A stretch of 64,000 nucleotides of DNA from positions 1,336,077 to 1,400,076 of the forward strand of contig NMRA01000002.1 of NCBI GenBank assembly GCA_002633005.1, written 5' to 3'. Positions 27,601 through 54,715 of the stretch are shown here, piece by piece. The DNA comes from Phoronis australis. Its lineage: Eukaryota > Animalia > Phoronida. Under the pieces are notes generated by a model. That model did no database searches. It was given only the letters and a program-made list of their open reading frames with translations, and was not told where the DNA came from. The translations under genes and the position numbers were made by a program. The first letter of the stretch is position 1, and every line of letters starts with the position of its first letter.

Positions 27601-27764
27601 CTGAAATGAGACTAGTTATACTATCCAGCAGAGCCAGTAGTCAACGCGAGTTACCCAGGGTATGAAAGCAGACATATGTGCAAATATATAGATATACAAT
27701 ATTACAATATTATCACCAAACAAAACTCCCCCCATACAGCACCTTCTATCATCCAATCGCACAC

Positions 27765-27994
27765 TCACTCATCCTTGGTGCAATTCACCAACGGAACATT
27801 GCCATTTTTTGCTCTGTCTACTCTTGGCGTGAAGTCTTTGAGAAGCGCTCGGAAGATAAAGACTGTGAAGCAGAAGACGGGAATGTTACCAAAGGCAACG
27901 ATTGGACCCATCAATCCTGGGATGTATGGTTCGACAAATGCCAGCTGGTAGTCGACAAAACCAAACGACAGAATACGTGACGTGAATGCCGTAA
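27765..27994 (-). CDS. TLC gene last coding exon (FTAFTSRIL...RALLKDF...CTKDE*)
   Basis: cttacag acceptor; open frame to TGA at 27767-27765; absent from the ORF track, read by hand. Confidence 0.85.
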
Positions 27995-30900: not shown

Positions 30901-33900
30901 AGTAATAACATTATAATACTATAATTAAAAATACATACAATTTATGCAGACTACGAGAAGGCTCAATGACCATGGAGCCACTTAACTCGTTTTAAAACCC
31001 GCGTCTCACAAACGTTTTTATTAAGGTAGTTTCCTTGAACAGGTGTCTTGAAAACTTAGCTACAATGACCTCAACTTTAACGGGTTTCCAAACCAAAGTT
31101 TAGCAATTCTGACCTCCCCCCATGAGCACAGTCAATTGTTCCAACAAACCTAAAACTCAAAGACTTCACCACGCCAACAAGTGTGCAGTATTTGTAGAAT
31201 GCCTAAATGAACACCCAGGAAAAGACTGGAGCTAAAAACACAAAATTCTAAAAAAGAATTGAAATTTTAAGAACCTGTAAACTTACACATATGTGGTGTA
31301 AAATGAAGGCATATGCCAACTTCAAATCCCGACTATAGGCGACGAAAACATAGATATCGAATACGAAGAACCCTAAAAAGTAACAAAACCAAAAAATGTC
31401 AACAAAACACAACAAAAACCCACCAGAACTGTTTGTCACTGAGATTAGATAGCAAGTCAGTAATCTGAGCAAAAAGTTCAACTGTGAATTCAAGTGCCTT
31501 TGATTTTTAGCATGACTCCAAAGTTCTGGTGAGAACAAAAAGTTCATAAATTAAATATTTTAAATGAGTAAGTGAGAACCAAACCTTTCCACATGGAACC
31601 TGAAACAGAGACCTGCACAGTAAGACACATGTGAAGGCATCTAATCAGTTATAATAATTCTAAATATATGAATAAACAATTATTACAAATCTCAATTAAT
31701 AAATTACAATTTAAGGTACAGACAAGCTGAATGACAGAGAACTTAACCAAGGCAAGCTAGACATAGGTGTCATTTGACAGAAATAATCTGTGGAATAAGC
31801 AAAAGGCCTAGATGTAGAAAGCGACTGAGTGATTAGTGACCACGATCAGCAAGTCACTGTCAGCAAGTCACTGTCAGCAAGTCACTGTCAGCAAGTCACT
31901 GTCAGCAAGTCACTGTCAGCAAGTCATTGTCAGCAAGTTACTGTGACTACTGAGCCAAACATAGCAGCTGCTGAAAACACATATTCAGCAAGTCACTGCG
32001 ACTATTGAGCCAGATATGGTTGAGGACATATGTTCTCACAGTTACTGTGACTATTGAGTCAAACATGGTGGAAAACTTATGAGTTCAGTAAGTCACTGTG
32101 ACTATTAAGCCAGACATGTTTGATGACTTGTATGTTCAGCAAGTTACCAGCCAGAGCTAGACATAACGAGCTGCAGACCGCATTTGCGATCTGAAACTTG
32201 ACGAAAGCAATAAAAACAACAAAATCTGTTGTTTTTGTGATTTTCTTATGAATCGTCACAATTCTCCCCATTGTCTGCCATTTATTGAAAGACATTTAAC
32301 TCTGCCAACAGAGCATTAGGTCGCTATTGTAAGAGTTTGATTTAGTGCTGATGCTGTTCACAAGAAATCATTTTTCTTCCTGATAATGTCTCTTTAAAGC
32401 TGAGTACAATAAAGCCGAGTACAATAAAGCCGAGTACAATAAAGCCCAGTTGCAAACTCCACCAAAACAAATGTTTGCGTTTGGTGCTTACCCAAAATGA
32501 AAGAGAGCAACATCTCTGCATTTAATGATGTTCCCATATAATTCTTGGTATTCATGATTCCCACCACACTGAAAAGACAAGACAATGACAAACATTAGAA
32601 GGTTTCTGAATGGTTTAAACTTGAAACAGAGACAAGACAAACTTTCACAACAGTCATTTGGTATCATGAACCCTACATTCTAAACAAGAGCAATGCGAAG
32701 CGTTGAAATGTGCCCACGAATGCATCTCAAATGGTGTGCTTTTAGGGTTGTTTAATTGTGTCATGAAAATGGCCACTAGATGGCACAAAAACTTAAAATC
32801 CATCCGAAAACAGAAGCATGTCATTGCTTGCTTAAAAGAAAGCTATACACCAAATTTCATAGAAATACATCACAGAACTTCAAAGAAACAAAGGGAAACA
32901 GAATAAAATGAAATTGCCACTAGGGGGCACAGTGTTCATTGGCTCCACCTGAAAGTCGTTATTGTCTGTTGTTAGCTTCATATAAATACATTTACTAAAT
33001 TCAATATAGATCCTGGAGTGGGTTTAGGAGTTACATCTATGGGTGCAAAACAAAACAAAACTACCACTAGGAGATGCCAAAGTAGTTAAAGTAGTCATCG
33101 TCAACCGTCCTCTTCACACTGAGAACATATACGCCAATTTTCAAAACCATCCTTCGAATGATTTGGTTGATAGAGTGGTAGATGCCAAAAAACAGACTCG
33201 AAAACAGCAAAAATGGCCACTAGGTGGCGCAAAATACCTTGATTCCATCCGAAAATGGTAGGATAGCGTCATCCCACCAATAGATGCCCCTATTCAAAAT
33301 TTTACGAAAATCCGTGGAGGACCTTTGAAGATACAGAGGTAAACGTCACCAGGGGGCACACCAATAGTCAAATCCATCCGAAAATAGTCGTCGTCCATTG
33401 TCAACATCATATAAACATACTTGTTAAATTTAGTAAAAATCCTGCAAACGGTTTAGGAGATACAGCCATGGATGCAAAAAACAAAACTGTCACTAGGAGG
33501 TGCCATAGTAGTCGAAATCATCGGAAAATCATCGTCAGCCATCCACTTCATAGTAAAAACATACATGCCAATTTGCACAATTATCCTGAAAGCGGTTTGG
33601 TTGATAGAGGGGTGGACTCGAAAACAGTAAAAATGGCCACTAGGTTGTGCAAATTAGGTTGAATCCATCTGAAAACGGAAAAATAGCGTCACCTCACTAA
33701 CAGAAGCCTGTACATCAAATTTTATGAAAACACGTTGAGGACCTTTGAAGATACAGAGGTAAACGTAAAAAAATAAAATTGCCACTAGGTGTCACAGTAG
33801 TTGTCAGATCTGTCCTAAAGTCGTCATCGTCCATTGTCAACATCATATAAATTTGGTAAAGATCCTACAAAAGGTTTAGGAGATACAGCCATGGGTGCAA

Positions 33901-34953
33901 AAAACGAAACTGCCACTAGGAGGCGCCACGGTAAACGAAGTCGTCGGAAAATCATTGTCCGCTGTTCTCTTCATAGTAAAAACATACATGCCAGTTTTCA
34001 CAATCATGCTTCCAGCGGTTTGGTTGATAGAGGGATGGGCGCTAAAAAAGAGACTCGAAAACAGTAAAAATGGCCACTAGGTGGTGCAAACTACGTCGAA
34101 TCCATCTGAAAATGGGAGGATACCGTCATCTCACAAATAGATGCCTATGTACCAAATTTTATGAAAATACGTTGAGGACCATAGAAAATATAGACGAGGT
34201 AAATGTAAAAAAATAAAATTGTCACTAGAGGGCACACCAGTAGTCTGCTCAGCTGAAAATTTGCTCATCCGTCCCCATCCATGAAAGGAACACATGAACA
34301 AAATTTCATGAACATACGTCAATCGGTTTTGGAGATAGAGCAGCGGATATACACCACCCAGACGGACGGATGGAGATGACGGCATAATGTGTCCACATAT
34401 AAATATGTGGGCACATACAAACTTGCACTCAAACACCCTTTGTTCAATATGTTCTCACTTTCAATTGATGAAGTCAGAACCTTAAGTTCCTATAAAGCCC
34501 CAAGTCTCCATAAACCTACCTAACCAGTGCCCATATTCCTCTTACACATAAACCTACCTAACCAGTGCCCATATTCCCGTTATCCATAAACCAACCTAAC
34601 CAGTGCCCATATTCCCGTTATCCACACACCTACCTGAACAGAGCCCATATTCCTGTTATCCATAAACCAACCTAACCAGTGCCCATATTCCCATTATCCA
34701 CAAACCTACCTGAACAGTGCCCATATTCCTGTTATACACAAACCTACCTGAACAGTGCCCATATTCCTGTTATACATCCATGGATGAGAGAGACTGCAGT
34801 ATTGGCAGCCACCACTCGCTCTTTCTCGTGGACCTTGATGACTCGGAGCAGAAGACGGAAGCTCACATAGAAGAACAGTGCTGAGAACAGGCCGACGAGC
34901 ATATGAGCGCTTAATTCATTTGCCAGAATTGAAATCACTTCCTTTACACCCAT
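27765..34953 (-). CDS. TLC (TRAM/LAG1/CLN8) domain membrane protein, TLCD1/TLCD2-like, 256 aa
   Basis: Coding exons 34953-34748, 32568-32492, 31372-31287, 29768-29597, 27994-27765; phases 2,1,0,1 all match; 771 nt including TGA. Motifs VSLIHG, GFFVFD, ILHH, EVSNIFLHSRKLM, RI, RALLKDF are typical of TLC proteins. Several hydrophobic helices. ATG context aacATGG. Confidence 0.9.
28422..29233. repeat. 32-bp perfect minisatellite, 25+ copies, next to an N gap
   Basis: TAATGAACAAGCTGTACTATACTATAATGTGA x25 plus 12 bp; N at 28421. Confidence 0.99.
29597..29768 (-). CDS. TLC gene coding exon 4 (AFATYGG...EVSNIFLHSRKLM...LLGL)
   Basis: ttttgcag acceptor, gtaagt donor; E-x-S/N-x-x-FL-x-x-R motif. Confidence 0.9.
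30159..30475. mobile_element. MITE with ~26-bp TIRs; partial second copy at ~1437-1605
   Basis: TTGGCCACATCACGTGACCTAATGAA ... TTCATTAGGTCACATGATGTGACCAA; the left half recurs in ABCA intron 1. Confidence 0.65.
31287..31372 (-). CDS. TLC gene coding exon 3 (GFFVFDIY...AFILHHIC)
   Basis: tttttag acceptor, gtaagt donor; conserved G-F/Y-F-x-x-D and HH motifs. Confidence 0.88.
31847..32150. repeat. 14-bp tandem repeat grading into longer degenerate units
   Basis: CAGCAAGTCACTGT x~7 (31847-31944), then AAGTCACTGTGACTATTGAGCC-containing units about every 55-60 bp. Confidence 0.85.
32492..32568 (-). CDS. TLC gene coding exon 2 (VVGIMNTKNYMGTSLNAEMLLSFIL)
   Basis: ttttcag acceptor, gtaagc donor, phase 2 to 1. 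Confidence 0.8.
32682..34421 (-). mobile_element. Helentron-associated (HINE/DINE/pearl-like) non-autonomous element with ~430-bp internal tandem units
   Basis: Sub-terminal inverted repeats ATGTGCCCAC (~32709) / GTGGGCACAT (~34407). Palindrome CCACATATAAATATGTGG and a (GACG)n microsatellite at one end; short hairpin and AACAAGAG at the other. GGCCACTAG recurs at 32771, 33215, 33635, 34072. Confidence 0.7.
34512..34777. repeat. 38-bp minisatellite, 7 copies, derived from the TLC exon/intron junction
   Basis: AAACCTACCTGAACAGTGCCCATATTCCTGTTATACAC at 34512, 34550, 34588, 34626, 34664, 34702, 34740; the last copy overlaps the coding exon. Confidence 0.95.
34748..34953 (-). CDS. TLC gene coding exon 1 (MGVKEV...VSLIHGCITGIWALF); exon begins at acceptor 35066
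   Basis: gtttcag acceptor before 35066; donor AG|gtaggt after 34748. Confidence 0.85.
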
Positions 34954-35534
34954 GTTTGCAAAGACGGAGGACTGGACTACAGCTGGAAGAAGGGTTTGAC
35001 TTTGGTATGTAGATTGTATAACACAAGGCGACCAGTTGGTTGAAGTTTTATTCACTGCATATCAACCTGAAACAAAGTACATTCATTACAAATCTTTAAC
35101 AATACCACACACGCATAGAACTGTTCTTTGTTGTAAACACCAGCTATAATCCTATGTATGTTTCTGTTTAAACTCAAATAATATAAATGAAGAGATGTAT
35201 CGAAACACTATTTTGATTGTCGGACTACTTGTTTTCAGTTTGAAGGATTTAAAAAATTTATAGCTTCCAAAGGTGTCCATATGTACACAAAATGTACATT
35301 CCATGTGCTAGTTACAGGTCATGTTACTTCCCAATCACTTACACTTAATGACAGATCATTTAACATATATCTGAAGACCTTTGACTGAATAAGTAAACTT
35401 ATCTCAGTACAGTTCTTAGTTCACCTTTGCACCAATGATGAAAGTGAGCAGCTGGTTGATATCTGAATCATTGAAAGAATTTTTACAGTTTCTTTCTGAT
35501 CTAGTTAAGTGACCACAAAGTTGGAGAAAACCGA

Positions 35535-37180: not shown

Positions 37181-39063
37181 TTAGTAGTAGTAATAATATT
37201 TATTTAAAAGTCGGCAAGGTTTAACAATGAAACATTAGCACAAGTGCTATTATCCGACAATTTTTAAAATCTACAAAATGAAAATACAGAAAACTAAAAT
37301 ACAAACTAATTCTACAGTATGGAGAATATACAGAACTTAAACTAGGTCATGGTATTAAAGCGTTTCACATAGAGACAGTTTTCACCTCTCAGACCGTATC
37401 CAGACTCTATAAATTCAAGCTTTCCTGACAAAGGACAGGGCCCAATAACATGAACATTTTTGAATACTTCAATAGATAAACATTTCATCCGCCGACTAGT
37501 TAGAGAGCAGCTCCTAGCCTTATCTAAGAGTTGTGAGTAGCTTGACTCGCTGTCATTGAACACAAACTTTTAAGCACGGTGTTGAATCTTTTCCGTTTTC
37601 TTACTTTTCTGTATTCCACATAGGAGCCAAACGAGGAGGCAGTGATTAAAATAGGATCTTATAAATGCATAATATAACTTAAGGTTACTCTTTGAGCCTA
37701 AAACATTACGAAGACAGAACAAGGCATTCATTTGTCTAGAAGCTTTTTTGCAAATAATGTCAATGTGCTCATGGAATTTTAACTGGCTGTCAAGTTGGAC
37801 ACCCAGAAGCTCATCTACTCTTCACACCCAATCCTAGTATCACCAGACATGAGATACCTATCATTATTTTGTACACGACTCTTAGAAAAGATGATCGACT
37901 TAAATTTACCAGGGTTTACAGCCATTCCATTAGAGGAGAACCAATCCATTGCCATCTGCCCAGCTACCTTGAGGCTGAGGCGAATAGAAGATATTGAGGA
38001 GCCTGCTTGCATGAGGGTATTGTCATCAACGTAATAATATAACTTACAGTGGCTGCTTATAGCGTAAAATATATCATTTATAAAAATGTTGAATAACATG
38101 GGGCCTAAGACAGACCCTTGGGGAACGCCCTTGGGGACATTTAACCAGTCACTGATAGTGGAGCCAATTTTCACACTCTCATCCTTCTATCACTGAGATG
38201 GGACATTATGAGGTTACATGTATTCAATGTGCAGCCATATGCTTTTAGTTTGGCAACAAGGAGCTCATGGGGGAGGCAATCAAAAGCCTTAGACAGATCA
38301 ATTAGTATGCACCCAGCAAATACATTATTATCCTGAGCTAACCTTACATCTTCAGTTGGATGCAACAAGACATCCTGACAAAAACCTTTACAGAAAGCAC
38401 ATAAATTTTCATTTACAATTTCATCAAAATGTAGTTTCAACTGGTCTAGGATAAGTCATTCAAAAACTTGGTTGACAGCAGTTAGCACGCTAACTGGTCT
38501 AGAACAGGATTTATCCATTCGGTCCACTTTCTTAAATACTAGACTAACCTGACTTTTTTCAACAAAGAGGGATACTCATTGGAGGCTATACACTTGTTGA
38601 ATATGGGTGCTAGGGACTTGCACATTGCATGAGCGCCATACTTGAGGAATCTTGGATGTAATGAGTCATAACCCATCGATTTATTTATCCCTTCAGTTTA
38701 CGCAGGACGTCGTTTTCAGTGACAATTGAAAAGCTGAGGCACTGTCGTTTCGATCGTTCTCCACTTTTGGAGAGAATCGAGGTGACACTGGGATGAGAAG
38801 TATAGCCATTGTAAGAGTTTACATTTGGAAACTGGGATTGATTCCACTGATTCAAAACAGTAACTATCAAAGATATCAACTAGCTTATCAGCATCTGTGA
38901 CAACTTGAACATTTTCATACAACATAATCCCATTTCTGACTGTTCCTTCACAAACAAAAGGCTTGACACTGCCCCAGAAGAGCTTTGAATTGCACGATCG
39001 AGTTATTGATGTCACTGTTTGTTTGTTTGTCCAGAAATACTGGCATATGGATTTGCTTTTCAA
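37181..39063 (-). mobile_element. 5'-truncated, decayed non-LTR retrotransposon (CR1/L2-group reverse transcriptase) in TLC intron 1
   Basis: Frameshifted ORF pieces 39063-38685, 38440-38171 (IDLSKAFDCLPHELL), 38174-37815 (GVPQGSVLGPMLFNIFIND, YVDD) and 37563-37342. The 3' end has AATAAA plus a (TAT/TAC)n tail near 37181-37206. Confidence 0.9.
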
Positions 39064-39722: not shown

Positions 39723-39960
39723 TTAGAGAACAACCTTGGTAACCAGCATGCAAATATTAGCGAACCCGTTTGGGTGTTGGATTGAGAAAATGTTGTCGAA
39801 CGATATGGTTCCAGGTACACGCAAACGGCACAAAAGCAATAGAAGAACCAGAAAAGCCAACCGCAAGAGGACGCTAAAAACTTCCTGTTTGAAATTTTAT
39901 TTCCTGTGTTTTGATGCGTCTGTGGTTTTTCCACATTGGCGTCCCTGAAGTTTATAGTCG
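39723..39960 (-). other. Probable non-coding first exon of the TLC gene
   Basis: Strong donor AA|gtaagc at 39722 in a CpG-richer patch; the 5' limit is a guess. Confidence 0.4.
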
Positions 39961-40500
39961 TAACCATCCATTAAAATTTGTTGTGAGTATTTAACTCTGG
40001 AAGTAATGTCGTTCAGATTCTAACACATTCATACACGGAAGATTCTAATAAGCGAGGTCAAAGCCCAGTCTACTAGTCTAGAGTCTAGACAATGCGCTAT
40101 GGCCTTGTCAACTGCTGGCTACAGCCACAGGCACAGACAGAGGAGGCAATACTCATTCCATAGACGGATTATGAACTCACACTAATTAAATCATCAATGT
40201 CATGTTGCAATTAATAAGTACCTTTTGCATATAGAGAGACACTTTAGGAGGTTCTTGATGTTTTAACTCTTACCAACTCGAACAAATACACCCACAACAT
40301 TGGTAGTTACTGCCGGTTCTGGGAAGCAGAGATAGATAACAACTGGGAAGATTCCATTTTGCATATTTGCAAATTTGAAGCAGAAACGTACTGATTAAAC
40401 AGTAATGAACATTTCTGAACTTGATTAAATCAAATCACTTGTTGTCAGTAAGTCACAACAACTTCTAGAGACGTGTTGGAAAATGTTCAGTTTTGGGGTG
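39960..40500. promoter_or_regulatory. Putative bidirectional promoter between the TLC gene (-) and the PAW-BTB gene (+)
   Basis: Divergent donors at 39722 (-) and 40648 (+, aa|gtaagt) lie under 1 kb apart; both first coding exons start with acceptors and so need upstream exons. Confidence 0.4.
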
Positions 40501-41395: not shown

Positions 41396-41642
41396 GAGTT
41401 TGAGAAGAGTGTCATAGGCACATTTTCAACCAACATTCATTCAACCTATTAAATTTCTTGAACTTCAGAAAATCAGACAATAGGCGACTTTACATTCACG
41501 AAGTGTCACTCTTTTGCTCTATTCTGCAATAGTCTAAGGGCTTCTTGAATACTGACCAGTATAGAGTACACACCATGATTTTTTGTTTCAGGGTTCCTGC
41601 AGATTGCCGTAGTTGTTGGTTGCTCGTTTTCTTATTGTTATC

Positions 41643-41762
41643 ATGGGCAATCAAAAATCACGTTCTTCAAGAAGCACACGAGGTGATGAAGGAGCTTCAC
41701 AGTCTCAGCATCAGACTGAGGATAGTTCACAAAGAGCAGTGTCTGTGCGTGCAACAAATCTT
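41643..41762 (+). CDS. Fusion gene coding exon 1: MGNQKSRSSR... low-complexity N-terminus with N-myristoylation consensus
   Basis: Acceptor tttcag at 41590-41591; donor CTT|gtaag; M-G-x-x-x-S pattern. Confidence 0.7.
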
Positions 41763-44700
41763 GTAAGGGAAATGATATGTATACATTTTATTTAATTTTG
41801 ATAAGAAACCACTTTGTTCCCGCTGTGTATTCTGTTTCATTATTTGGTAGAGAATCAATTTGGAATACTCTAGTTGCTTTTCTGATATTGATTACTAAAA
41901 GCTGGTAATTTCTAATTAATTTTATTTCATTGTGAAATTTTGGCAAGTCACTTACTTTACAAATGGATTCTGTAGCTTGTGAACTAATTATCCCCCGTCG
42001 CATGCATAGGGGATATGGTAATGGTAGACGTCATTCTATGTATTTGTCTGTCCGTGTTTCCAACCTTCTGTACATTCTGAGAAATGCTCTGTTCTCAACT
42101 TCTACACTTCTCATCGCATGTCCAATCAACATGCAAAATACCATACTTAGGAAATATCGTCAGAGTTTTGTAATTCGATCATATTTCCTTTTATTGTGTT
42201 TCATTCTTGATTTTCGCGCATGCATGTAGAAAAATGTTCTTTTGAGCACAATTACTCCTATATTGCCAGATTTGGACCAAAGTTCAGGGAGTTTACCGTC
42301 ATGAATTGTCCTGCTGCATGTCTTCAGTGTTTTGTGATTTGGCCTTATTTTCTTGAATTATGGACCATGTTTGATTTTCACACATACATGCAATGAAACT
42401 TTTGGTAGTGTACCCCTGTGGAGTATTCTAGCCCATATCGTCGACACTTAATACTCCGTGCATTTATCTCGGTCTTCTGTGAAATATATTTTTCTCAAGA
42501 GATTTCAACTATATTCGCCTGGATGGATGGTGAGTATGGTCATATTGTTGTTTTAATTTTCATTATTCCGCCTCTTGTATAGTGTTGGTGGTGTTTTTTT
42601 TTTGTCTACACAAATATTGTTGCAAGCGTCCACTCTGTTATCAGTTGTTATCTGTTCTTGTTCAATGATTATCTCATGAAGTGCTTGATGGATTTTGACA
42701 AAACGTGTCTCAGAGGTATATTGTCGAGGTCACTGCCAAACCAGTTTATTTCTGACATATTACCCTAGCTGTTGTTTATTGTCAAAACGGTTCACGAGAT
42801 TTTGATGAAACTCAGCACAACGTAAAGGATGGGGATGCTCCGGCGTCAATTGACTTGCCTGAATTGCATTTACCTCATATTGGTGGCATTTCACAATTTG
42901 ACATTTCAGACACCTATTATAAAATCTCACCAATTAAGGACACAAGATGGCAGATGAAAGAAATTTCATTTTTTTATTAATTTTTTTTCAGATATAGCAT
43001 CAAATTTTAATTTTAATAAAGTATTAAAATGCTTTATTTTCAAGTTCTATACTGCAGCTACCACTAGAAAAAATATTTTTAAAAAATTGCAGACCTTGAA
43101 AAACAGAAAATAGGATAATTTGTCAGTAATTTTTGTCTGAAATTGATGGGATTTTATCGTACATCTTCTTGATTTTTCACTCTTACAAACAAATTTGAGA
43201 AATGCCATTGGGTGTGAAACTCATGCAAAACATTCGACTGCTTTGTTCCAGGTTTTTTTTCAAAAAATCCCGATAGATATTTTATCCAGTTTGTTGCTGT
43301 GAAAAGGACGTTAGGTCTATGTAAGCCCCTTTGTTTGGTTTTGTTTTGGCTGGCTGCTTGTAAGACTTCCTCCACCTTTGGAGTGTGAGGAAATCTCCCT
43401 AGTTTTATACAGGTGGACAGTAGTGCCAAACTGAAGGACTCATCTTGTTTTCACTTGCAAACCTTCTGTGCGGCATGTGTTGTGAGACTGGATGGCAATT
43501 TTTTAGTGTTTATGTGGTATTTGTTCCTGAAATCATGAAGCTGAGCACGGCTGACCTATTATACTCCAAAACTTTAAATGAATTGTGTAATACTGCAAAA
43601 ATGCAGGTTGTGATGGTGTACTTGTATGAGTCGAGCCTCGAAAGTCACATCTGCGCACTGTCCCTGTTTACACGTTAGGTATGATTCTCCATCTTAGTGT
43701 CTCAGCACTGTCATTTCATAAGTATAGAAATCAGTCATCCAGGTGTTACCATGATACCTTTCACTAGGCGGGTTAGAAGTCCTTACATTGCAAGTGAACA
43801 ATTTATTGTTTTATATATCACACTCGAATTGCACAACAAGTATCAACCTGCGCACGTCGAAATTAGGACCGCATGAAAACATTTATCGGCGAATATAATT
43901 GCTTTCAAAAGAACTTATTCACTTGAAGATTCAACGTTTTATTATTCGCTTGTCACTTTGCCATTTGCATTTTTGTGAACTAAAGCATTCACTTATCTCA
44001 TTGACTGGATTTCCGGTCACTACTAAAATATGTGAAGTCATTAAATAGTTCAAAGTTTTTGAGTACAAGATGGCAGATGATTTGATTCATCATTGTTAGA
44101 GAAAGGTAAAAAGAGGCGTAGTATAGCCAGGTGAGACTGTTTATGGTTCCCTAAATATCTTAAGGGAAATTAATTGGGATAGTACTAGCACACTCAACAA
44201 GTATTTTTTGCCCTCCAATTTTTGTCAATTTCACAAATTTGTGAAAACATTTTGAATAACCCTTCACATCTATTTGACTATAATCCTTCACCTGCTTCTC
44301 CTCTTTGCTTTCAGGTATCACCTAAGTGTGGACAGTGGGCAGGTGTCTATTCACAGTATGGGCAGCAGTACCCATTCACTATGGATTTGCTGTTCTTTGA
44401 CGACCAGAGGGTCTCTGGCTCAGGCTTTGATGAAATCGGCCCGTTTGAAATACACGGAGATTTCAATCGACTGACAGGCCAGATCAGTTTTGATAAGAAG
44501 TACATAGGACGACATACTGTCCAGTATGCTGGTACAATTACGGACGAGGGTAAAAAAATTTCGGGTTTATATTGGAATTCTGATACCTTCGAGATGACGG
44601 TAGTTGTGGTGAGTGCATTGTGTCATGATGGCTTTGCTGGGGGTCATCCCTGTGTGTTTTTGTGACCACCTTGATCACACAAGCATTTTCATGCTTTGAC

Positions 44701-47700
44701 GTTTCATGGTCTATTCAATTTGTGCGGATTCCTGTATTGATGATGTTAATTGTCTGTGGAGTTTTGTGTGCAGTAATCTCATGGTCGTCTGACTCTCACA
44801 GAACTTAAAATTGTTTGTGTTGTATTCTAAAACAGCCAGCCCAAATAAAGTGTGAGAAGTCAGTCTGTCAAGCTATGTCAAAACTTTTCAGTTGTTTAGG
44901 GTCAATGTTTTGTATTTTCTACAACCTGTCTACTGAATAGTAAACCACCAGTGGTTGTTGCTGGCTGTGTTTTGAGTTACACGTGTTGAAGACATGCAAC
45001 AAATACACTTGCCAAGATTCACAATAACGAATCTGTATGAAATCTCATACAAATAACATTTTCAGACCACAGGGGAGGAGTGAATGATCGGGTATGGCCA
45101 GTTGCTGATAAATCGGGAAAACTACAACAATTTAAGCAACATTTCTGTTATTTTATGTGCCCACATAAGAATACATGTTCCTAGGTGCATATTGCTATCA
45201 CCTCTCCGGAGGATGGAGATCTTAAAGAGAGGGCATGGTTATCCCGGTGAGGGGAAGGGGTGGAGATATGGGGGGGCATAAAATGGAGACAGACGAGACA
45301 TGAAAGTGTAGTACTTCCAAAGTGGGCTTGTTGTTTGTTTGAGACAGTGTTTGTTATCGCTGAGAAAACCAAAAATAATGGTCACTGTGGTGATTAGAAA
45401 GTTTGTAAAAACAGGACAACTTTAACAAGTCATCAACAGACGGAAGATTGTGGGACTTTAATAATGGATCACCATAAATATGCTCCTTTTTGCTGTGCAG
45501 TTATTATGTAAAAATAATATCAGGCTGTCTGGTACACATTGTACCAGGCATGTGCAGGCCTCTCGGGTGGACCCATTGCACTGATCACCTGGAATCATTT
45601 TTGTGCTTTATTTTTCTGGCTATTTTTTTTCTGAATCAGTAAAATGTTCAGGCATTTGTTGAATACTCTGTGAAGCATATTACCTACTTACCTACCTACA
45701 GAGTGCGTAGTACATGAGATGGGGTAAAGTAAGTGACTTGTACCAATGTAGTCTGTCAGATGGGGTTAAATATTAAGTGACCTGCATGTTAAAAGTAAAA
45801 TGTGTTGACCAGATTCTTCATGTTCATGAAATTGTATTTGATATCTCTTTAACATATTAGTTATGAGTGAAGTGGTTGTGTAGTGGTGTTTCAAACAAAA
45901 GCTCAGTTCTGTATTAAGAAAACTGTGATGAGTGATTGATATTTAAGGTTTTTGTGCTGATGTGTATTGAGAGAAATGTTGCCAGCATACATAACAATAT
46001 CCCCAGATAGGTGGGAAAATTTAAATCATTTATGTTTAGAACAGTGCTGGCTAGGTTAGAGCCTAGAGACACCTGTTGTGATTTGAGGGAGAGATGAACT
46101 GTGTGTGGTTATGATAACAAGTATATTGCTACCTGTGATAACCCGTGTGTCATTTTTAATTCTGAATCCTTTATTTTAGTTTCAACGTTTGCGATCCCTT
46201 CTATGGGCATTATGTTTTTCGCTTTGGCCACTGTATCTATTAAGATCAGGTTTGAGTCTAATACTGGAATAAAAACTTACAAAAATTAGCGACGTTGCAT
46301 CCTTATCTCACTGACTTCAGCTTGGCTTGTGACGTTATCGTTATTCTAGCCAATTGGTGGTGTTTTGGCCAGACGGGGCAGCATCAACTTCAGAACACCA
46401 TCCCAAGCTGAAGTCCGTGAGATGCGGACGCAACGTTGCTAATTTTTGTAAGCTTTTATTCCAGTATTAGACTCAAACTTGATCTGTTTTTTCAACTGGA
46501 TGTCTCAAAATTTTCATGCTTGTATCTATTAAGTTCGATAGAGGATCTTCATGAAATTTGAGTGATATGATAGTAATTTCGTTGTCCTTTGTGGCAACGT
46601 TAATATGTACCAGGATTGCTCGTGCTAGTTTTGAGATGACTAATACTGCTCTCTGTAGACCCAATTTTAACTTTACATGTGTTGCGCAATCAAGTGCATG
46701 GAAATGTCTGAAAACTGAACACCTTTTTGATCTTTGGCGTTTACAATTATAGCAGTGGCTGTATGTCAAGGTCCCACCTTGCTCTTGTATTTTCCTAATT
46801 TCTTTTCGTGTTTTATTTGTCAAAATGCCCGGTAAATAGTTACTGAACTTGCACTAACAACTAATTTGTGTTGTTTCTTGATATCTGCTCATAGACCAAA
46901 CCAATCCAACCAATGGTGCTCAAAGTCACTGAAGCGGAACTGAGCACAGGAGTGCTTCAGGTCCAGTACAGCTGCAGCACTGACCAATATGTTCGACCAT
47001 ACAGTATGGATGATGACCGGTACACTGCTGGTTGGTCTAACTGTGTCTGGCTGGAGGAAAATATGTACAGAAAGGTGGAATATGACTGGCAAATGGTGAG
47101 AGGAAATTTCACATCATATTGTGTCTGGGCCTTATTAAAAAATGTTTTGGAAATGGTTCACATGCCAGAAAAAAATTACCTGGTTTTGCCAGGTTGGATT
47201 TTATGCAAAAGAATGCTCAGATCCATTTTTGGGTTTTCTTTCCAAAATAAAACAGTGAGTTAAATTTGCCTTGTAGGGAGTCAAATTATCCTGCATAATG
47301 TTTATAAACTGATTTTTGGTGGGCTAAAAAAACTGGAAGATTACAAGGAGTAAACTGTAAATTGATATTCATTTACATTTTGGCAGATTTACTGAGATAT
47401 TGTCACTCTGAGGCGTCGTGTTTCAGGTCTACTTGTCTAGATCGCCGGACACGTCTGCTGCAGACGTGGGCTGCATCTGCTGGAAGTTTGATTTAGGCGA
47501 CCATGAAATCGATCGTGTGAAACTAACTCTGAAATCAACCACTTTTAAGACCGGAAAGGTCTCGTGGTCACTTGAGACTGATGATTCACGAGTTGTGGAT
47601 GTAGATGGTGAGTAAATGCAATGAAATATTGACAGTATATTTCATTACCTCACAGTGTGGCCAATGAGTTATGGATGTACACGGTGAGCTAATTCAGTGA

Positions 47701-50700
47701 AATATTGTCAGTGTATTGCATTACCCGACTTTGTGGCCAGGGAACTGTCCATGTGTCTAATACTGTAACTAATGATATTTATTTTTGTTGTTTTGCAGCA
47801 CTAATTAATGGCCAAGAAAGAGACGAAAGTTTTCCAGGCAACAAGGCTATATTTAGTGGTAGGTTACTGTTCACCACAAATTGTTTTTAATGGTTTGTTT
47901 CTTTAGTGTTCAATTTCAGTGTAATCCATTGAAACAGTTGCTGTTTATGATATTTTTAATATTTCCCATGTTCAATTTATGAACAAAACAATAGTTTTGT
48001 TGAAGTGGTCTAGCCCAACCCATGCTTTTGAATGATGACTGAAGAAGGTATTGACGATTTTTTACTATTTTGAAATTTGTCCTGGCCTTTGATTCTTTAT
48101 TTACATTTTTGTGAAGAAATTAAATGGATTCAAAAATTGCATAGATGTCATTTTGATCTCGTCTCAGAAAATCCTTTACTCTCTGTCACTGTTCAGCACA
48201 CTTGAATAGTACTTAACTTAAAAACCCAAGATAGTCCATACGCATAAACCTCACAAACTGGTCAATATTTTCAAAATAGCCACGCCGTATTGAAATTCAC
48301 TATCCCACAAGACAGCAATCAGATCTTTGGTGGACAGGCATTCAGCGCCACCTACATGTCCCATGTAATGCCACTGGTATAAATAGCATTTCAACACCTT
48401 TCCTGCTATCATAATACTGGCAAATTTCCATTGCTGTGCGGTATGACTTGTGGAGAAAGGTAAACATCTTGAAATATCCGTGGATGAAGGGCATCATGTT
48501 CCACTGCGGAGAATAATCCGCACCCTGCAAAGTCGGTGGTTGCAAATGATAAAGCAGGAGAATTTTGATCCCAGCCAGTGTCAAAAATACTAATAATTAA
48601 ATTAGTGAAATTAAACTAATCAAACAATGGGAGGGGCCGTCTGTGGAGCTCATTTCTCTATTTTTAGATTAATGAACCACAGTGTAGTAATTGAATTTCT
48701 GTCTGCTAAATCTGAATTGGGATCAAGCGGAAGTCACTTTTGTGCTCTCATTATTCTAGAGAGCTCCGGTATGAAAAATTCCCTATAATCACACTGTAAC
48801 ACAAAGAGTCTTTGGCAGAATGAACAATTGGCCAGGTAGCCATACTGATTTTTCCTTTTAATAGGGATATAATGAATTTTTGAGAGAAAAAGTTCTAAGG
48901 CTTTGCTGTACACAAACAGAAAGCCTAGCTATTTTATAGAACTTAGTCCAATGTTGTTCTTACTATTTATTGTTACATGTTGCCATAACATGCACAGATT
49001 TTCTTTGAAAGTTAACCAAAAGTGGTATGAGGTGACTGCAAATCCTCAAACATGTCTATCTTGGTTCATAATTTCATAGTGATGGTGGTACACTTGAGTT
49101 TATTTCTTAGCCATATATTGATCAGTTCTTACACAACCCATGCAGTTTGAATTCTAATACAAATGAACTTCAAATCCTTGCCAGAGTTTTTACTTAAGTC
49201 AATGATAATATATTTTTTGATCAATATGTCTTCTGCCAAATTTCAAAAAAGAGCAAAATGCAAAATCTAAGGCTTTCTTCTTCTGCTGTTTATTGATGAG
49301 TTGAATTGGACTGTGGGAACTTTTTAAGAATAGCGGCAGTATTTTTGGAAAAAAGATTAAGAAAGAATTGATTTTTTTGTAAAATTAACATTTTTAATAA
49401 TGACTTAAAAACATTTGTCTTCAGTTGTTTTTTTCTCTCAAGTTTTGAGACCTCTCTCATATGCATAATGAAATTTAAGCATTTTAAAGAGCGAAATGGT
49501 CAGTGTTTCTATTTCTTTGAATGTTACAGAACCTCTCCATCCTGAATTATGTGTAGTGGTTGTGAAGTGTCTTGGAGTACACTGGGGTAGTCTATTTGTT
49601 GTGCGTGAACTTGGAATCTTGCTTAAATCTCAAGATCATGTATGCATGAACTTGGAATGCACGTGGAAACTTGACAAGTTCACTCAAATAATTGCGCTCA
49701 CGTTGACAAAAATTTGCACTGCACTAAATCAAACTAAACTAAATTTTAACCTATCTTTTTTCAACTCTTAGCGATCTCATTCACCAATAAATAATCGATT
49801 TAACCATTCACAAAAACCTCCGTTGGCACAAGTTATGGTAAAGGAAAAGAACGGCTCAGCATATTCACATCTGGTTTTCTGTTAGAACTGTCTATGTCAA
49901 CTGGGCTTTTATGTTCATCTGTTCATTACAGAGAATTACTGTGCCTAGTTAAGTCAATTAAATGCATTACATAAACCAAGGGTACAAAAGGTTCTGTAAT
50001 GGGTTTCAGAAGGTAAACATTTATAAAATCTCATGCATCTCGCAGGAAGTTGTCCATTTAAATAGCTGGTTGAGTGATGGTGTGCGTTCAGTAGACGCTA
50101 GGACCTACGCTAAAACCTAGCTAAAACCTAGTCAAAGTCACGTGTTCTCATTTAAAATGCACAGCAATATCTCACGTAATCTCGCACAGTCTTGCTTTTT
50201 AGCGAGGTCCTGGCGTTACTGAACGGGAGGCAGATTATTAAGTAGAGCTCAGTATTAGAAGCGATAATGATTCGAAGACCTGGTCATTCTCCTTAATGTA
50301 CATTTTCCAGGGGAAGACACTGTTGTGGTGGAGACCATACAAGGGTCGTCAGGATTTATACTGAAGGCGACATTGTCAAAGGGAAAGGAACACGACGATG
50401 TTGCTTGGCAACATGCTCAGTTGTTCCGCCAACCTGTGGGTGAAAAAGATGTCTATCCTTTTGATGTTCAGATATTTGTCAAAAAGAGCCAGGTAAGTTT
50501 TGAAAGTGTCTGTATAAAATAGTGTTTGTGTTTTATTATGTAGCCTTGGACTGGTCACTCTCATCAACACTTGGTGATACATATGCCATTTTAGTGATTT
50601 AAAACAACTGTGGTATTTATTCAGTGGTTGTGGTCTGTGAGTTCCAGATCATTTCCATTCGTTTGACATTCACCTTTTTCATTGGTAGCGCTTTTCATGA

Positions 50701-52031
50701 AAAATTGTGTTATAAGTTTATATTGTTAAATATTGATTACAAGCCATATTCTAGATTGGTCTTGGAATACACTTAGTTAACTCTTGTATTCCTTTATGTG
50801 TAGTCGACGGTATATTTCAGTGATCTCTGTCCACTGCTGTAATCATCTCAGTCCATATTTCTAGGACTGGCAGATGTTGAAGACCTCTGTGGAGGCTAAC
50901 AAGTACATGTATGACCATCGTCATCTTGCCAGTGACATTCAGTTCCTGGTAGGTGCAGATCACGTGCCCATTGACGCCCATAAGTACGTACTGATCTCAC
51001 GGAGTCCTGTCTTCTTCACTATGTTCTACGGAGGCCTGTCACCTGAGAGCGACCAGCCTGTTCCACTCCCTGATACAGAGGCATCGGCCTTCCTGGAGTT
51101 CCTTAGGTGAGTCACACTTAAAATTTCCCCTTTTAACATCCTGCTTGCAAACTACTCGCTGTTTGTGAGCCTGGTGATTGTAAACAATATAAAACAGATA
51201 ACACAAATAAGTGAAATCATATCATAAATAGCCCAGTGATTGCATGTTTAGATTTTTTAAAACTTTTACTTAGGCAGTGTTGTTACGCCATCAGCACACG
51301 GTGAATACAAGATTTATGTCGACCATTTGTCCATGATCGACTTGGCAAACCAGACATATTTGACATCACAATGACATAGATAAGCATGCATTTATTAGTT
51401 TAAGACTATGTTACATGCCTGACCTTCAGTGTTGACATTACCGAGTGTCAATACAGTGTCTGCCATTACAATCAGTGCTTGATAAAATACTGTTTTTACA
51501 CCTGCTAGCAGCGCCATCTAGTGGTCTGTTATTGTACCCACCATTTCTTGGATTCTGTTTTTCTGTGATATCTAAACTGTATGTTTTAGGTTCCTATATT
51601 ACGACGAAGTCAACATCAACCCAGACAATGTTTTTGAGATATTCTACACTGCTCAGAAATACCTAGTCTCATCATTGACCAAGAAGTGCATACGCTTCAT
51701 TGTGACTCAGCTCTCTATAGACAACTGCTGCTCTGTTCTTACACAAGCTGTGCTGTGTGACGAAGTACAATTGATGTCAAAAACACTAAGCTTCATGCTC
51801 AACAGCTTGAGCGAAGTTTACCAGAATGAGAGCTATAAGGACTTGTCTCTCCATGCGTTAGTATATGTACTAAAGAACTCTGACATTGACACCAAGTCAG
51901 CTCAGTTCCGCACAGTTTTTGATGTCTGGCTGCAGGAAGAGTGCACGAGGCAACAGTTGACGGTGTCGGCTAGCAGCAGACAACTAGTTACTTCACAGCT
52001 CAAGGCTCAGATACCGTCATTTCCACTGTAA
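41643..52031 (+). CDS. Myristoylation-motif + beta-barrel-like + PAW (PNGase C-terminal mannose-binding) + BTB-BACK fusion protein, 553 aa
   Basis: Exons 41643-41762, 44315-44608, 46895-47095, 47427-47607, 50311-50492, 50865-51106, 51590-52031; phases 0,0,0,1,0,2 all match; 1662 nt including TAA. The in-frame TAG at 41610 upstream of the ATG and the Kozak context atcATGG support the start codon. Confidence 0.78.
41988..42866 (+). mobile_element. Degenerate HINE-like element of a second family
   Basis: 5' TTATCCCCCG...GGGGATAT followed by a TGTC/TCCG microsatellite; 3' GGGGAT followed by the hairpin GGCGTCAATTGACTTGCC. Confidence 0.5.
44315..44608 (+). CDS. Fusion gene exon 2: ~98-aa Gly/aromatic all-beta domain of unknown function
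   Basis: tttcag acceptor, GTG|gtgagt donor; GQWAGVYSQYG...SGSGFDEIGPFEIHG...FDKKYIGRHTVQYAG...ISGLY. Confidence 0.8.
46243..46485. mobile_element. Foldback/MITE with ~80-bp inverted arms
   Basis: GAGTCTAATACTGGAATAAAAACTTACAAAAATTAGC...CTTCAGCTTGG is mirrored by CCAAGCTGAAG...GCTAATTTTTGTAAGCTTTTATTCCAGTATTAGACTC; no clear TSD. Confidence 0.75.
46895..50492 (+). CDS. Fusion gene exons 3-5: PAW domain (NGLY1/PNGase C-terminal mannose-binding domain homolog)
   Basis: Exons 46895-47095, 47427-47607, 50311-50492 give Y...DQYVR...GW...VW...MYRKVEYDWQMVYLSR...ICWKFD...STTFKTGKVSW...ATLSKG...DVAWQHAQLFRQ. This is colinear with the recalled NGLY1 PAW sequence (IFRKVETDWHMVYLAR, ISWKFE, SQTFQTGTVEW, DVAWQHTQLFRQ). 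Confidence 0.92.
50085..50225. mobile_element. Short MITE-like inverted repeat
   Basis: CGTTCAGTAGACGCTAGGACCTACGCTAAAA versus TTTTAGCGAGGTCCTGGCGTTACTGAACG; a related end motif near 61965. Confidence 0.55.
50865..52031 (+). CDS. Fusion gene exons 6-7: BTB/POZ + BACK domain (BTBD1/2/3/6-type), no PHR domain
   Basis: DWQ...N.YM...SDIQFLVG...AHKYVLISRSPVFFTMFYG...LPDTEASAFLEFLR|FLYYDEVNI...AQKYLVSSL...C; the BACK helices end at IPSFPL*. Confidence 0.92.
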
Positions 52032-52403
52032 TAGTCCTGCCCGTGTGCTTCAGCTCCTGTGCCCCAATGTTCAACTGTGTTGTGGAGAGACCGCTTGATG
52101 GGCATGACTGCGTGAGACTGTTGACTGTCTTGCTGTATCGAAGGTAAAATATCATTAACTTCAGCATGGAAGAAAACAAGCTTGCGACAGAGTTCTGAGT
52201 TGTAGAAATGATTGATTAACGCGCCTTGGTCCCTATTGTCATGAAATTATTCGCACCACCACACATGTTAAATTATTAGAGCCAGCACACCTTATTATGT
52301 TATCTCAAAATTGCGAAAAGTAAAGGTGTTAACAAAATTATGATACAACTGACAGATTTTCTGTTTCTTTATTGTTTTTTTAAATTTATTTCTGCATAAG
52401 TAT

Positions 52404-53645
52404 ATGAAATTCAACTTATGGCTATTGAGAACACAACATAAGAATCGTGTAATGTGAAGTTAAACTTGCCGTTATTGAGAACACAACTTAAGCATCATGT
52501 AACATGAAAATCAACTTGTGGTTATTGTTAACACAACATAAGCATCATGTAACATGAAGATCAACTTGTGGTTATTGTTAACACAACTTAAGCATCATGT
52601 AACATAAAGATCAACTTGTTGTTATTGAGAACACAACATAAGCATCATGTAACATGAAGATCAACTTGCCGTTACTGAGAACACAACATAAGCATGTGAA
52701 GTTCAGCTTGTGGTTTTAGAGAACACAACATAAGCATCAGGTAATATGAAGTTCAGCTTGTGGTTATTAAGAACACAACATAAGCATCAGGTCTAATATG
52801 AAGTTCAACTTGTGGTTATTGAGAACACAACATAAGCATCAGGTAATATGAAGTTCAACTTGTGGTTATTGAGAACACAACGTGAGCCTCATGTAATTTG
52901 AAGTTCAGCTTGTGGTTATTGAGAACACAACATAAGCATCAGGTAATATGAAGTTCAATTTGTGGTTATTGAGAACACAACATAAGCATCATGTGATGCA
53001 AAAGTTTCCTTTAAATGAGATAAGATCCATTTGGAGTAATCTTGAATTTCTCCAATGTCACATAATCAGTGTCTATTTATTAGGTTAATAGTCAGGGTAA
53101 TAACTATTTTTCATCAAACCATATGTAAATAGAGGTCTTGAAAGCATCCTGGCTGTACTTTTTCATTTCCTTTTGGGACATGAAAACTGATGGAAACCCT
53201 AAACTCTGAATAGAGGAGTAAAAAATGACTAATGTAGATTGCTGAATTGTCAATATTGGTCAAGTATAAGTGGTTTTGTCATTAAAAACCCAAGCCTTGA
53301 GTTATCCATTGGAAAGTATAGTTCCCAGCATGGTTTATCAGCTAGTTTTACTGCGTCACTGACTCACAATAGAAGCTGAGCCTGGAAGAATGTGGATAGA
53401 ACCTGTTGTGGTGATGGAATCTGGTTTAAAGGGCAATTTCATGACATGGTGTGATATGAAGTTCAACTTTTTGTTATTGAGAACATAACTTAAGTATCAT
53501 GTGACATGAAGTTCAACTTCTTGTTATTAAGAACATAACCTAAGTATCATGTGACATGAAGTTCAACTTCTTGTTATTAAGAACATAACGTAAGTATCAT
53601 GTGATATGGAGTTCAACGGTGGTCATTGAGAACATTACATAAGCA
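52404..53645. repeat. ~50-bp minisatellite in two blocks (52404-52998, ~12 copies; 53450-53645, ~4 copies)
   Basis: GAAGTTCAACTTGTGGTTATTGAGAACACAACATAAGCATCATGTAACAT variants. Confidence 0.93.
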
Positions 53646-54715
53646 GAAATGTTTGTCATGTTTGAGACTGAGATACATGAAGATTGAAGTGATTCTGTGG
53701 ACATACATCTGAGGTCTGTTTTGGACTTAATTTAGTGGTTGGGATAATCATAATGTGATACTCTTTATCTAACATGTTAAGGTCATTTTTGTGCAATATA
53801 TATACATGTTAACATTCTCTAGTCTTCGATTCTTAATGTGCTTGCGTTTTAGGCTGACTTCAATGTGCCCCTTTCCTTGCACTATTGTATTTTATATTAC
53901 GTCAATAGGTGTCACTGGATGCAGGTCAGTGTGAAAGGCAAACAGCCTGCTTGAAAAAAAATTGTGTTATTCAGAGACTTGGCTCTTATTTTTGAATAGT
54001 GTCTGGTCGTCCGTTATGGCAATTCAATTACAGCTTAGATCTCTACTTAGAGAGGTCGTGCCTCATCTCATCAGTTCAGGATTCCCTCTGAAGTTGTTTT
54101 GACCAAGAGGGCTGGTGAAATATTTGGCAACTGTTGAAGCGGCTATTATGGCAACTGAAAATTGGGGTGTCGAGGGACTGTACCTCAGACTTTACGACGT
54201 AGCACCCTGAGAATCCTTTATCCAGCACACTTTACAAGTTCTTGTTTTTAGTAGGAAAGTGATGTGTATGCACGGTGCATTCGATTTTCATGTACAGATA
54301 TCTGTTACCACTGACGAATTAAGATTTTTTTGATCGGTCGTCGCATAACCCGTTTTGCTTTGGCCGGTCTTCAGTCGTAAAATGCAGCCAGTCACACTCT
54401 CTATTTAGGGCAAAATGTCTAATTTACCCCCAAGGCCGTGCCGGAAGATAACATGTATTTTAATTTCATACAATCGGTCTTTAAGCATTCAGAACTAAGT
54501 TGTACGCCTCGTACTTTTAACTTTGTTTAGTATGCCCTGTTTATGGGAATAAACGGGAAAACGCAATGGCAAATAAACTGGGTAGAAGTCGGTTATCGGT
54601 TGTTGTGCATCCCATACAGCCATAACATGATATCCTATTAAATCATGCAGGTTGGGTTAACTAGTTATGTAGATGATATAAAAGTACAGAGCTAGCCCAG
54701 AGGCTGGAAAAAATT

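Follow-up and report, generated by a model that had tools for sequence, protein, structure and literature searches.

Can a PAW domain, as known from NGLY1/PNGase, and a Cullin3 (Cul3) adaptor module be parts of one and the same protein, and what could such a protein do? This question is raised by a locus of the phoronid Phoronis australis (NCBI GenBank assembly GCA_002633005.1, contig NMRA01000002.1). The window analyzed here, i.e., the whole stretch of 64,000 nucleotides from position 1,336,077 to 1,400,076 of the forward strand, contains a gene on its plus strand, in the following termed PAW-BTB gene, whose coding sequence extends from position 41643 to 52031 of the window. A preliminary description, made from the letters alone, had joined a myristoylation motif, a beta-barrel, a PAW domain and a BTB-BACK module into one reading frame of seven exons and 553 amino acids. 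The fusion is real, being expressed and spliced as one unit; the gene has, however, eight coding exons, which join in one frame of 573 amino acids with a single terminal stop.

All seven coding junctions are crossed by raw reads of three stranded RNA runs that carry the same species label (X1, X2 and X3; about 18–19 in 100 of each run used). As short reads prove single junctions and not one full-length molecule, counts are given for each joint separately, in the order X1 + X2 + X3. They amount to 4 + 1 + 5 (total 10) for 41762>44315, 0 + 5 + 4 (total 9) for 44608>46895, 3 + 7 + 6 (total 16) for 47095>47427, 6 + 8 + 10 (total 24) for 47607>47799, 7 + 0 + 16 (total 23, none in X2) for 47858>50311, 2 + 4 + 8 (total 14) for the joint from PAW to BTB at 50492>50865, and 8 + 11 + 10 (total 29) for 51106>51590. 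In all junction-crossing reads the first mate maps to the minus strand, which is what a transcript from the plus strand should give, and every splice site of the gene has GT..AG ends. None of the coding joints was present in the X4 contigs.

The exons of the preliminary model had thus been placed correctly, but one was missed. This exon of 60 nucleotides (47799–47858) is used, since reads cross both of its joints, and the joint 47607>50311 which skips it, and which a seven-exon gene needs, was absent among the joints listed. The spliced connection to the BTB exons was borne out, as was the joint behind the barrel exon. A separate gene for the BTB exons, with transcripts ending after 50522 and a transcription start site of its own, is not indicated: no pile-up of transcript starts or ends and no competing joint was listed between 50492 and 50865 in the RNA runs. 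The bin which holds the 372-nucleotide intron between PAW and BTB had depths of 0.72, 1.3 and 2.87, compared to 0.79, 1.4 and 3.07 predicted from its 79 exon letters alone. The depth is therefore explained by the exon letters, and nothing points to transcripts that end or begin in this intron.

Of the domains named in the preliminary description, three were recovered by Pfam above cut-off, PAW in three exons, BTB in two and BACK in one. The PAW family (PF04721; cut-off 31.4 bits) matched exon 3 (46895–47095, residues 139–205) with 50.6 bits (E 2.7e-13, model positions 23–83), exon 4 (47427–47607, residues 206–266) with 41.2 bits (E 2.2e-10, model positions 84–137) and exon 6 (50311–50492, residues 286–346) with 43.2 bits (E 5.3e-11, model positions 143–195). 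The matches cover model positions 23–195 of 197, a stretch roughly equal to the mouse construct 2i74 with its 189 residues, and PAW is therefore complete as judged from its sequence. All three exons match structures of mouse PNGase; exon 3 does so with 2i74 itself (E 4.6e-6) and keeps the motif RKVE.DW, which reads RKVEYDW at residue 197. The second PAW motif, DVAWQHAQLFRQ at residue 315 (DVAWQH.QLFRQ), has 11 of 12 residues identical to mouse and presumably lines the sugar site. PAW domains are reported to bind high-mannose glycans (PMC9102325; PMC12248763). A docking study names four residues of human PAW, K530, V531, D534 and E544 (PMC11016977), and the first three of these four are kept as K198, V199 and D202.

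The exon structure points to NGLY1 as the origin of this domain. According to published descriptions, exon 11 of human NGLY1 extends from c.1612 to c.1789 (PMC13082330; PMC8997433), and the position of W535 in the human protein is anchored by the reported variant W535X. The intron behind D-W-x-M lies in phase 0 in both the PAW-BTB gene and human NGLY1 (c.1611/1612). The following exon, i.e., exon 4 of the PAW-BTB gene, is the counterpart of human exon 11 and ends in phase 1 in both genes (c.1789), with a length of 181 nucleotides here and 178 in NGLY1. Both testable intron positions, those of human introns 10 and 11, are therefore held in common. As two intron positions coincide together with their phases, the PAW exons are likely a DNA-level copy of the last (3′) exons of NGLY1. 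The transglutaminase core and the PUB domain of NGLY1 had no Pfam match in the seven exon frames scanned (the 60-nucleotide exon lay outside the scan), and the reads join exons 1 and 2 directly to PAW.

The C-terminal half is a BTB-BACK module. Exon 7 (50865–51106, residues 347–427) carries the first part of a BTBD6-like BTB domain (PF00651, E 1.5e-8; best PDB match human BTBD6, 2vkp, E 1.1e-8). Exon 8 (51590–52031, residues 427–573) comprises the end of BTB, the 3-box, BACK and the stop codon, and matches PF00651 and PF07707 above cut-off. Its alignment to KLHL11 (E 9.6e-7) runs gap-free through the 3-box and shows the 3-box or first BACK hairpin of Cul3 adaptors to be present. The PHR domain, described as defining BTBD1/2/3/6 (PMC1257465), was not found: behind the stop at 52031, where open frames were compared by length and not by Pfam, the longest on the plus strand up to 54000 has 57 amino acids. 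BTBD6-like genes are reported to have multiplied in two vent snails, which possess 56 and 35 of them, and to stand in tandem in some snails (PMC7736800), so that raw material for such shuffles is available in molluscs. The BTB partner was likely a BTBD3/6-type paralogue which lost its PHR domain and in front of which the NGLY1 exons were placed.

At the N-terminus, exon 1 (41592–41762) encodes residues 1–40. Its ATG at 41643 is the first in-frame ATG, with an in-frame stop upstream, and is followed by an N-myristoylation motif with G2, S6 and the basic residues K5, R7, R10 and R13 and by a polar linker. The motif, already noted in the preliminary description, is a pattern match. As no signal peptide, membrane span or other hydrophobic segment was found in the predicted protein, a cytosolic location is predicted.

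Exon 2 (44315–44608, residues 41–138, phase 0 at both ends) is a cassette exon. A joint 41762>46895 which skips it was crossed by 2 + 1 + 5 reads, in total 8, compared to 10 and 9 at the two including joints, which means that roughly every second junction read leaves the exon out. The skipped form stays in frame and open and encodes 475 amino acids. The exon was predicted to form a barrel of eight beta-strands with a mean predicted local distance difference test (pLDDT) score of 96.7 in a model built from a 41-sequence alignment (53 from the single sequence); the barrel that had been proposed from the letters is hence a confident model, on an optional exon. Among 1.84 billion representatives, 599 relatives were found at E ≤ 0.001, and the barrel marks a family that lacks annotation, comprises no fewer than 599 clusters and stands beside TIR, lectin and E3 ubiquitin ligase domains. 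In the best 150 of the 599 relatives, from which its domain company was read, 109 hold two to six copies of the barrel and 132 are without a Pfam match at E ≤ 1e-4. TIR occurs in six, aquaporin in two, a galectin, B-box, U-box/RING, PLAT and PCMT domain in one each, and ricin-B, below cut-off, in one. The carriers for which names were obtained (20 of the 150) include Mytilus, Gigantopelta, Hydra and a choanoflagellate. This company suggests that the barrel is a recognition module.

Some of these relatives deserve mention in their own right. Six proteins (P0008, P0009, P0014, P0019, P0046 and P0080) combine several barrel copies with TIR, as seen in Hydra and the choanoflagellate, and this family is possibly an intracellular sensor. 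In four others (P0005, P0017, P0045 and P0098) the barrel is fused to B-box (Mytilus), galectin, U-box/RING or aquaporin. Within one bacterial phylum, 11 of the 251 genomes covered also contain the barrel. Twelve bacterial loci, judged by eye from open reading frame starts within short flanks, are stand-alone genes, several of them adjoining housekeeping genes, and no gene of a cyclic oligonucleotide-based antiphage signaling system (CBASS) was recognized there.

The barrel matches no PDB sequence and does not belong consistently to any family of Pfam, PADLOC or NCBIfam, as each family was matched by at most one of the 41 members of the alignment. Cap15 headed the Foldseek list, in which no match reached E ≤ 0.001. 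Wide structural alignment returned tied generic barrels, namely designed proteins at the top, Cap15 (7n34, Z 11.8, root-mean-square deviation 2.4 Å over 93 aligned residues), outer-membrane barrels, avidins (zebavidin, Z 10.3) and Gid4 (Z 9.4). Homology to Cap15 was rejected, with an hhalign probability of 1.2% against seven Cap15 sequences and PF18153 matching none of the 41 members at E ≤ 1. Leads to the lectin OAA (0.85) and to avidin (0.81) stayed under 0.9 and were not adopted.

What, then, could the protein do? By analogy to FBXO27 we tentatively propose, at slightly less than an even chance, a myristoylated and dimeric Cul3 adaptor which ubiquitinates carriers of exposed high-mannose glycans. 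Myristoylation at Gly2, together with the basic residues behind it, would hold the protein on cytosolic membrane faces. Dimerization through BTB would lend avidity to two PAW domains, while BTB and 3-box would bind Cul3. PAW, placed ahead of BTB like MATH in the MATH-BTB proteins, would bind the mannose arms of normally luminal glycoproteins, with those of ruptured lysosomes or phagosomes and retro-translocated endoplasmic reticulum-associated degradation (ERAD) clients as candidate substrates. Cul3-Rbx1 would then ubiquitinate the bound glycoproteins and direct them to autophagy or to the proteasome, and the cassette barrel may provide a second, switchable ligand pocket. Such a gene likely originated by duplication of the last exons of NGLY1 at the DNA level in front of the BTBD3/6-type paralogue that had lost PHR. 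A bolder version, which appears conceivable but is put forward with greater reserve, is an invertebrate glycan-sensing ligase, built from the mannose-binding exons of NGLY1 on a Cul3 adaptor and convergent with vertebrate FBXO27; it would label pathogen vacuoles or lysosomes after rupture and use the alternatively spliced barrel, of an undescribed immune-associated ligand-binding family, as a second, switchable sensor.

The gene is apparently under selection, judged from the allelic differences between the coding sequence of the window and the RNA reads. Eleven of the 15 differences listed are synonymous, where 22–33% would be expected (P 3e-5 to 2e-3), with six of nine in the PAW exons and five of six in BTB-BACK. 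As no listed difference falls in exons 1 and 2, this excess covers PAW and BTB-BACK only.

Several observations weigh against the proposed glycan adaptor. The main doubt on Cul3 recruitment arises from the altered φ-x-E motif in the α3/β4 loop, at which Cul3 is bound in such adaptors. This site reads L404-S405-P406-E407, in which Glu407 meets the Glu of BTBD6 only via a one-residue insertion, the inserted residue being proline; in an ungapped alignment to KLHL3, Pro406 falls on E85. The BACK match is also partial, covering model positions 1–75 of 103. Mutation of E85 is reported to abolish Cul3 binding of KLHL3 (PMC3616122). On the side of the lectin, human E544 aligns to Pro212, and exon 5 inserts 20 amino acids (residues 266–286) inside PAW. 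The residues that are kept are no guarantee of glycan binding, since FBXO44 is described as retaining the residues of the sugar site and yet binding no sugar (PMC6389600). Expression is low, with a depth of about 5–20 in the RNA runs, and the 15 coding differences are a subset of all differences, as the two lists have a further 390 and 60 rows. Moreover, no orthologue turned up, PAW or BTB being present in none of the best 150 of the 599 barrel relatives, a sensitive search that would not include a PAW-BTB protein lacking the barrel. Word-index searches started from the barrel exon and from two exons of PAW gave 20, 4 and 17 candidates without a match, but as NGLY1 itself was not returned either, they are uninformative on the absence of PAW-BTB fusions.

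It is against this background that other explanations have to be considered. The altered φ-x-E loop and the partial BACK match, alongside well-preserved PAW motifs, would also fit a dimeric, membrane-tethered cytosolic lectin scaffold in which Cul3 binding is lost or weakened and which serves without any E3 role as a galectin-like damage sensor or as a competitor of NGLY1. As the 3-box is preserved along with the rest of the α3 region (T-M-F-Y-G-G-L), we regard such a scaffold as rather unlikely. Some Cul3 binders of the BTBD1/2 type are also without the Glu. Conversely, Cul3 binding could be intact and the substrate not a high-mannose glycan, with PAW respecified or binding protein and the barrel recognizing a small ligand or peptide, in the manner of domain shuffles of the immune type. 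The lost counterpart of E544, the insertion in PAW, the barrel company (TIR in six and single cases of galectin, B-box, U-box/RING, PLAT and sub-cut-off ricin-B among the best 150) and the presence of Gid4 among the fold matches speak for such an adaptor. It is nevertheless unlikely, as the signature motifs of PAW are almost intact, the fold matches are generic eight-stranded barrels headed by designed ones, and the barrel is not essential, given that roughly half of the junction reads lack it.

That the gene is merely a young and functionless chimaera, shuffled together within an expanding BTBD6-like family, would agree with the missing orthologue in the searches described, with the tandem expansion of BTBD6-like genes reported for some snails (PMC7736800) and with the low expression. 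It seems improbable in view of 573 open codons, the share of synonymous differences, precise splicing in three runs and a PAW domain which is far diverged from that of mouse but still keeps its motifs. Two genes, one for a PAW lectin and one for a BTB-only protein, which are occasionally connected by read-through splicing, would be compatible with short reads, for which the full-length molecule is out of reach, and with the 14 reads at the joint between PAW and BTB compared to 23 and 29 at the neighboring joints. With neither intronic depth nor piled-up ends or starts nor a listed competing joint at 50492–50865, this explanation is very improbable.

If the proposed glycan adaptor is correct, it would represent a third, convergent route to cytosolic glycan-directed ubiquitination, which has so far been described for SCF lectins, this one on Cul3, and would hint at the way in which broken endomembranes are sensed by an invertebrate. 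It would likewise be a non-enzymatic use of PAW and a natural degrader module leading from glycan to Cul3. No description of a PAW-BTB protein was found in the literature, a search to which supplementary files and domain-architecture databases did not belong; an uncommented database entry of this architecture is quite possible. Within the window of 64,000 nucleotides there is no further copy of PAW, BTB or the barrel.

Outside the coding sequence, the transcript starts with a 5′ non-coding exon at 39860–39982 (plus strand, start approximate), whose donor is given by the joint 39982>41592 (6 + 0 + 9 reads). A second form of this joint, 39956>41592, with nine letters in between (2 + 5 + 0 reads), probably reflects a short deletion in one allele. 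The 3′ untranslated region (UTR) at 52032–53678 contains a 50-nucleotide tandem repeat, with arrays at 52402–52994 and 53450–53643, and the transcript ends near 53678, where molecule ends pile up in X1 and X2. A non-canonical joint with GG..TG ends (52142–53176, 3 + 0 + 5 reads), which drops 1033 nucleotides of the 3′ UTR with a 12-copy array of the 50-nucleotide repeat, more likely stems from a deletion in one allele than from splicing. Introns of the gene carry, at 46243–46485 and 50078–50233, an 83-nucleotide inverted-repeat element resembling a miniature inverted-repeat transposable element and a short high-copy repeat, on which reads from other parts of the genome accumulate in large number.

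On the minus strand, a spliced gene at 39723–39772 and 27700–35066 has a weak match to the TLC domain (E 0.0046, under cut-off). It is arranged head-to-head with the PAW-BTB gene, its 5′ end near 39772 lying about 100–200 nucleotides from the first exon of the latter, and both likely have a bidirectional promoter in common. Its first intron harbors a fragmented reverse transcriptase remnant resembling long interspersed nuclear elements (37345–38455, minus strand; RVT_1, E 1.8e-13). At 900–22000, the plus strand holds an ABC transporter gene of which the 3′ part, including two ABC_tran exons, is present and which is ABCA-like from its frames.

Compared with known systems, the closest counterparts in kind are the lectins of the Fbs group, i.e., Fbs1/FBXO2, Fbs2/FBXO6 and Fbs3/FBXO27, which belong to SCF ligases with Cullin1. 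Fbs3/FBXO27 is described as myristoylated and as acting on ruptured lysosomes; Fbs orthologues are reported from vertebrate genomes and other lectin F-box proteins from plants (PMC6389600). Like Fbs3/FBXO27 as described there, the PAW-BTB protein combines a myristoylation motif, a cullin-adaptor module and a beta-sandwich of an N-glycan-binding type in one predicted cytosolic protein. Unlike the Fbs proteins, it has BTB-BACK of the Cul3 type instead of an F-box binding Skp1 and Cullin1, PAW in place of the sugar-binding domain of Fbs type, a lectin that precedes the adaptor module and an additional cassette barrel. Neither an F-box nor an Fbs-type sugar-binding domain had a Pfam match in the seven exon frames scanned, and the protein is an analogue of the Fbs lectins and not a member.

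With the PAW domain of NGLY1/PNGase (PF04721; PDB 2i74, 2g9f and 2g9g) it has the complete domain, the signature motifs and two intron positions in common; it differs by lacking PUB and the transglutaminase core and thus is no enzyme, and by the Pro at the position of E544, the 20-amino-acid exon and the fusion to BTB. Its BTB domain is in the PDB closest to that of human BTBD6 and is followed by BACK, as in BTBD1/2/3/6 with their order BTB-BACK-PHR; unlike these proteins, it is without PHR, carries its recognition domain at the N-terminus and has the one-residue insertion in the φ-x-E loop. The order of a beta-sandwich recognition domain, BTB and a helical BACK-type region is the one described for MATH-BTB adaptors such as SPOP and MEL-26 (PMC1257465), although PAW is unrelated to MATH and the BTB is of the BTBD6 type. 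The exon-2 barrel resembles the receptor domain of Cap15, avidins and Gid4 in fold, but its sequence has no match in the PDB and its profile none to Cap15. As a defining feature of each is missing, the protein is not a member of the NGLY1, BTB-BACK-PHR or Fbs families. PAW-BTB-BACK is instead a real, expressed and apparently selected architecture that is new within a system of known kind.

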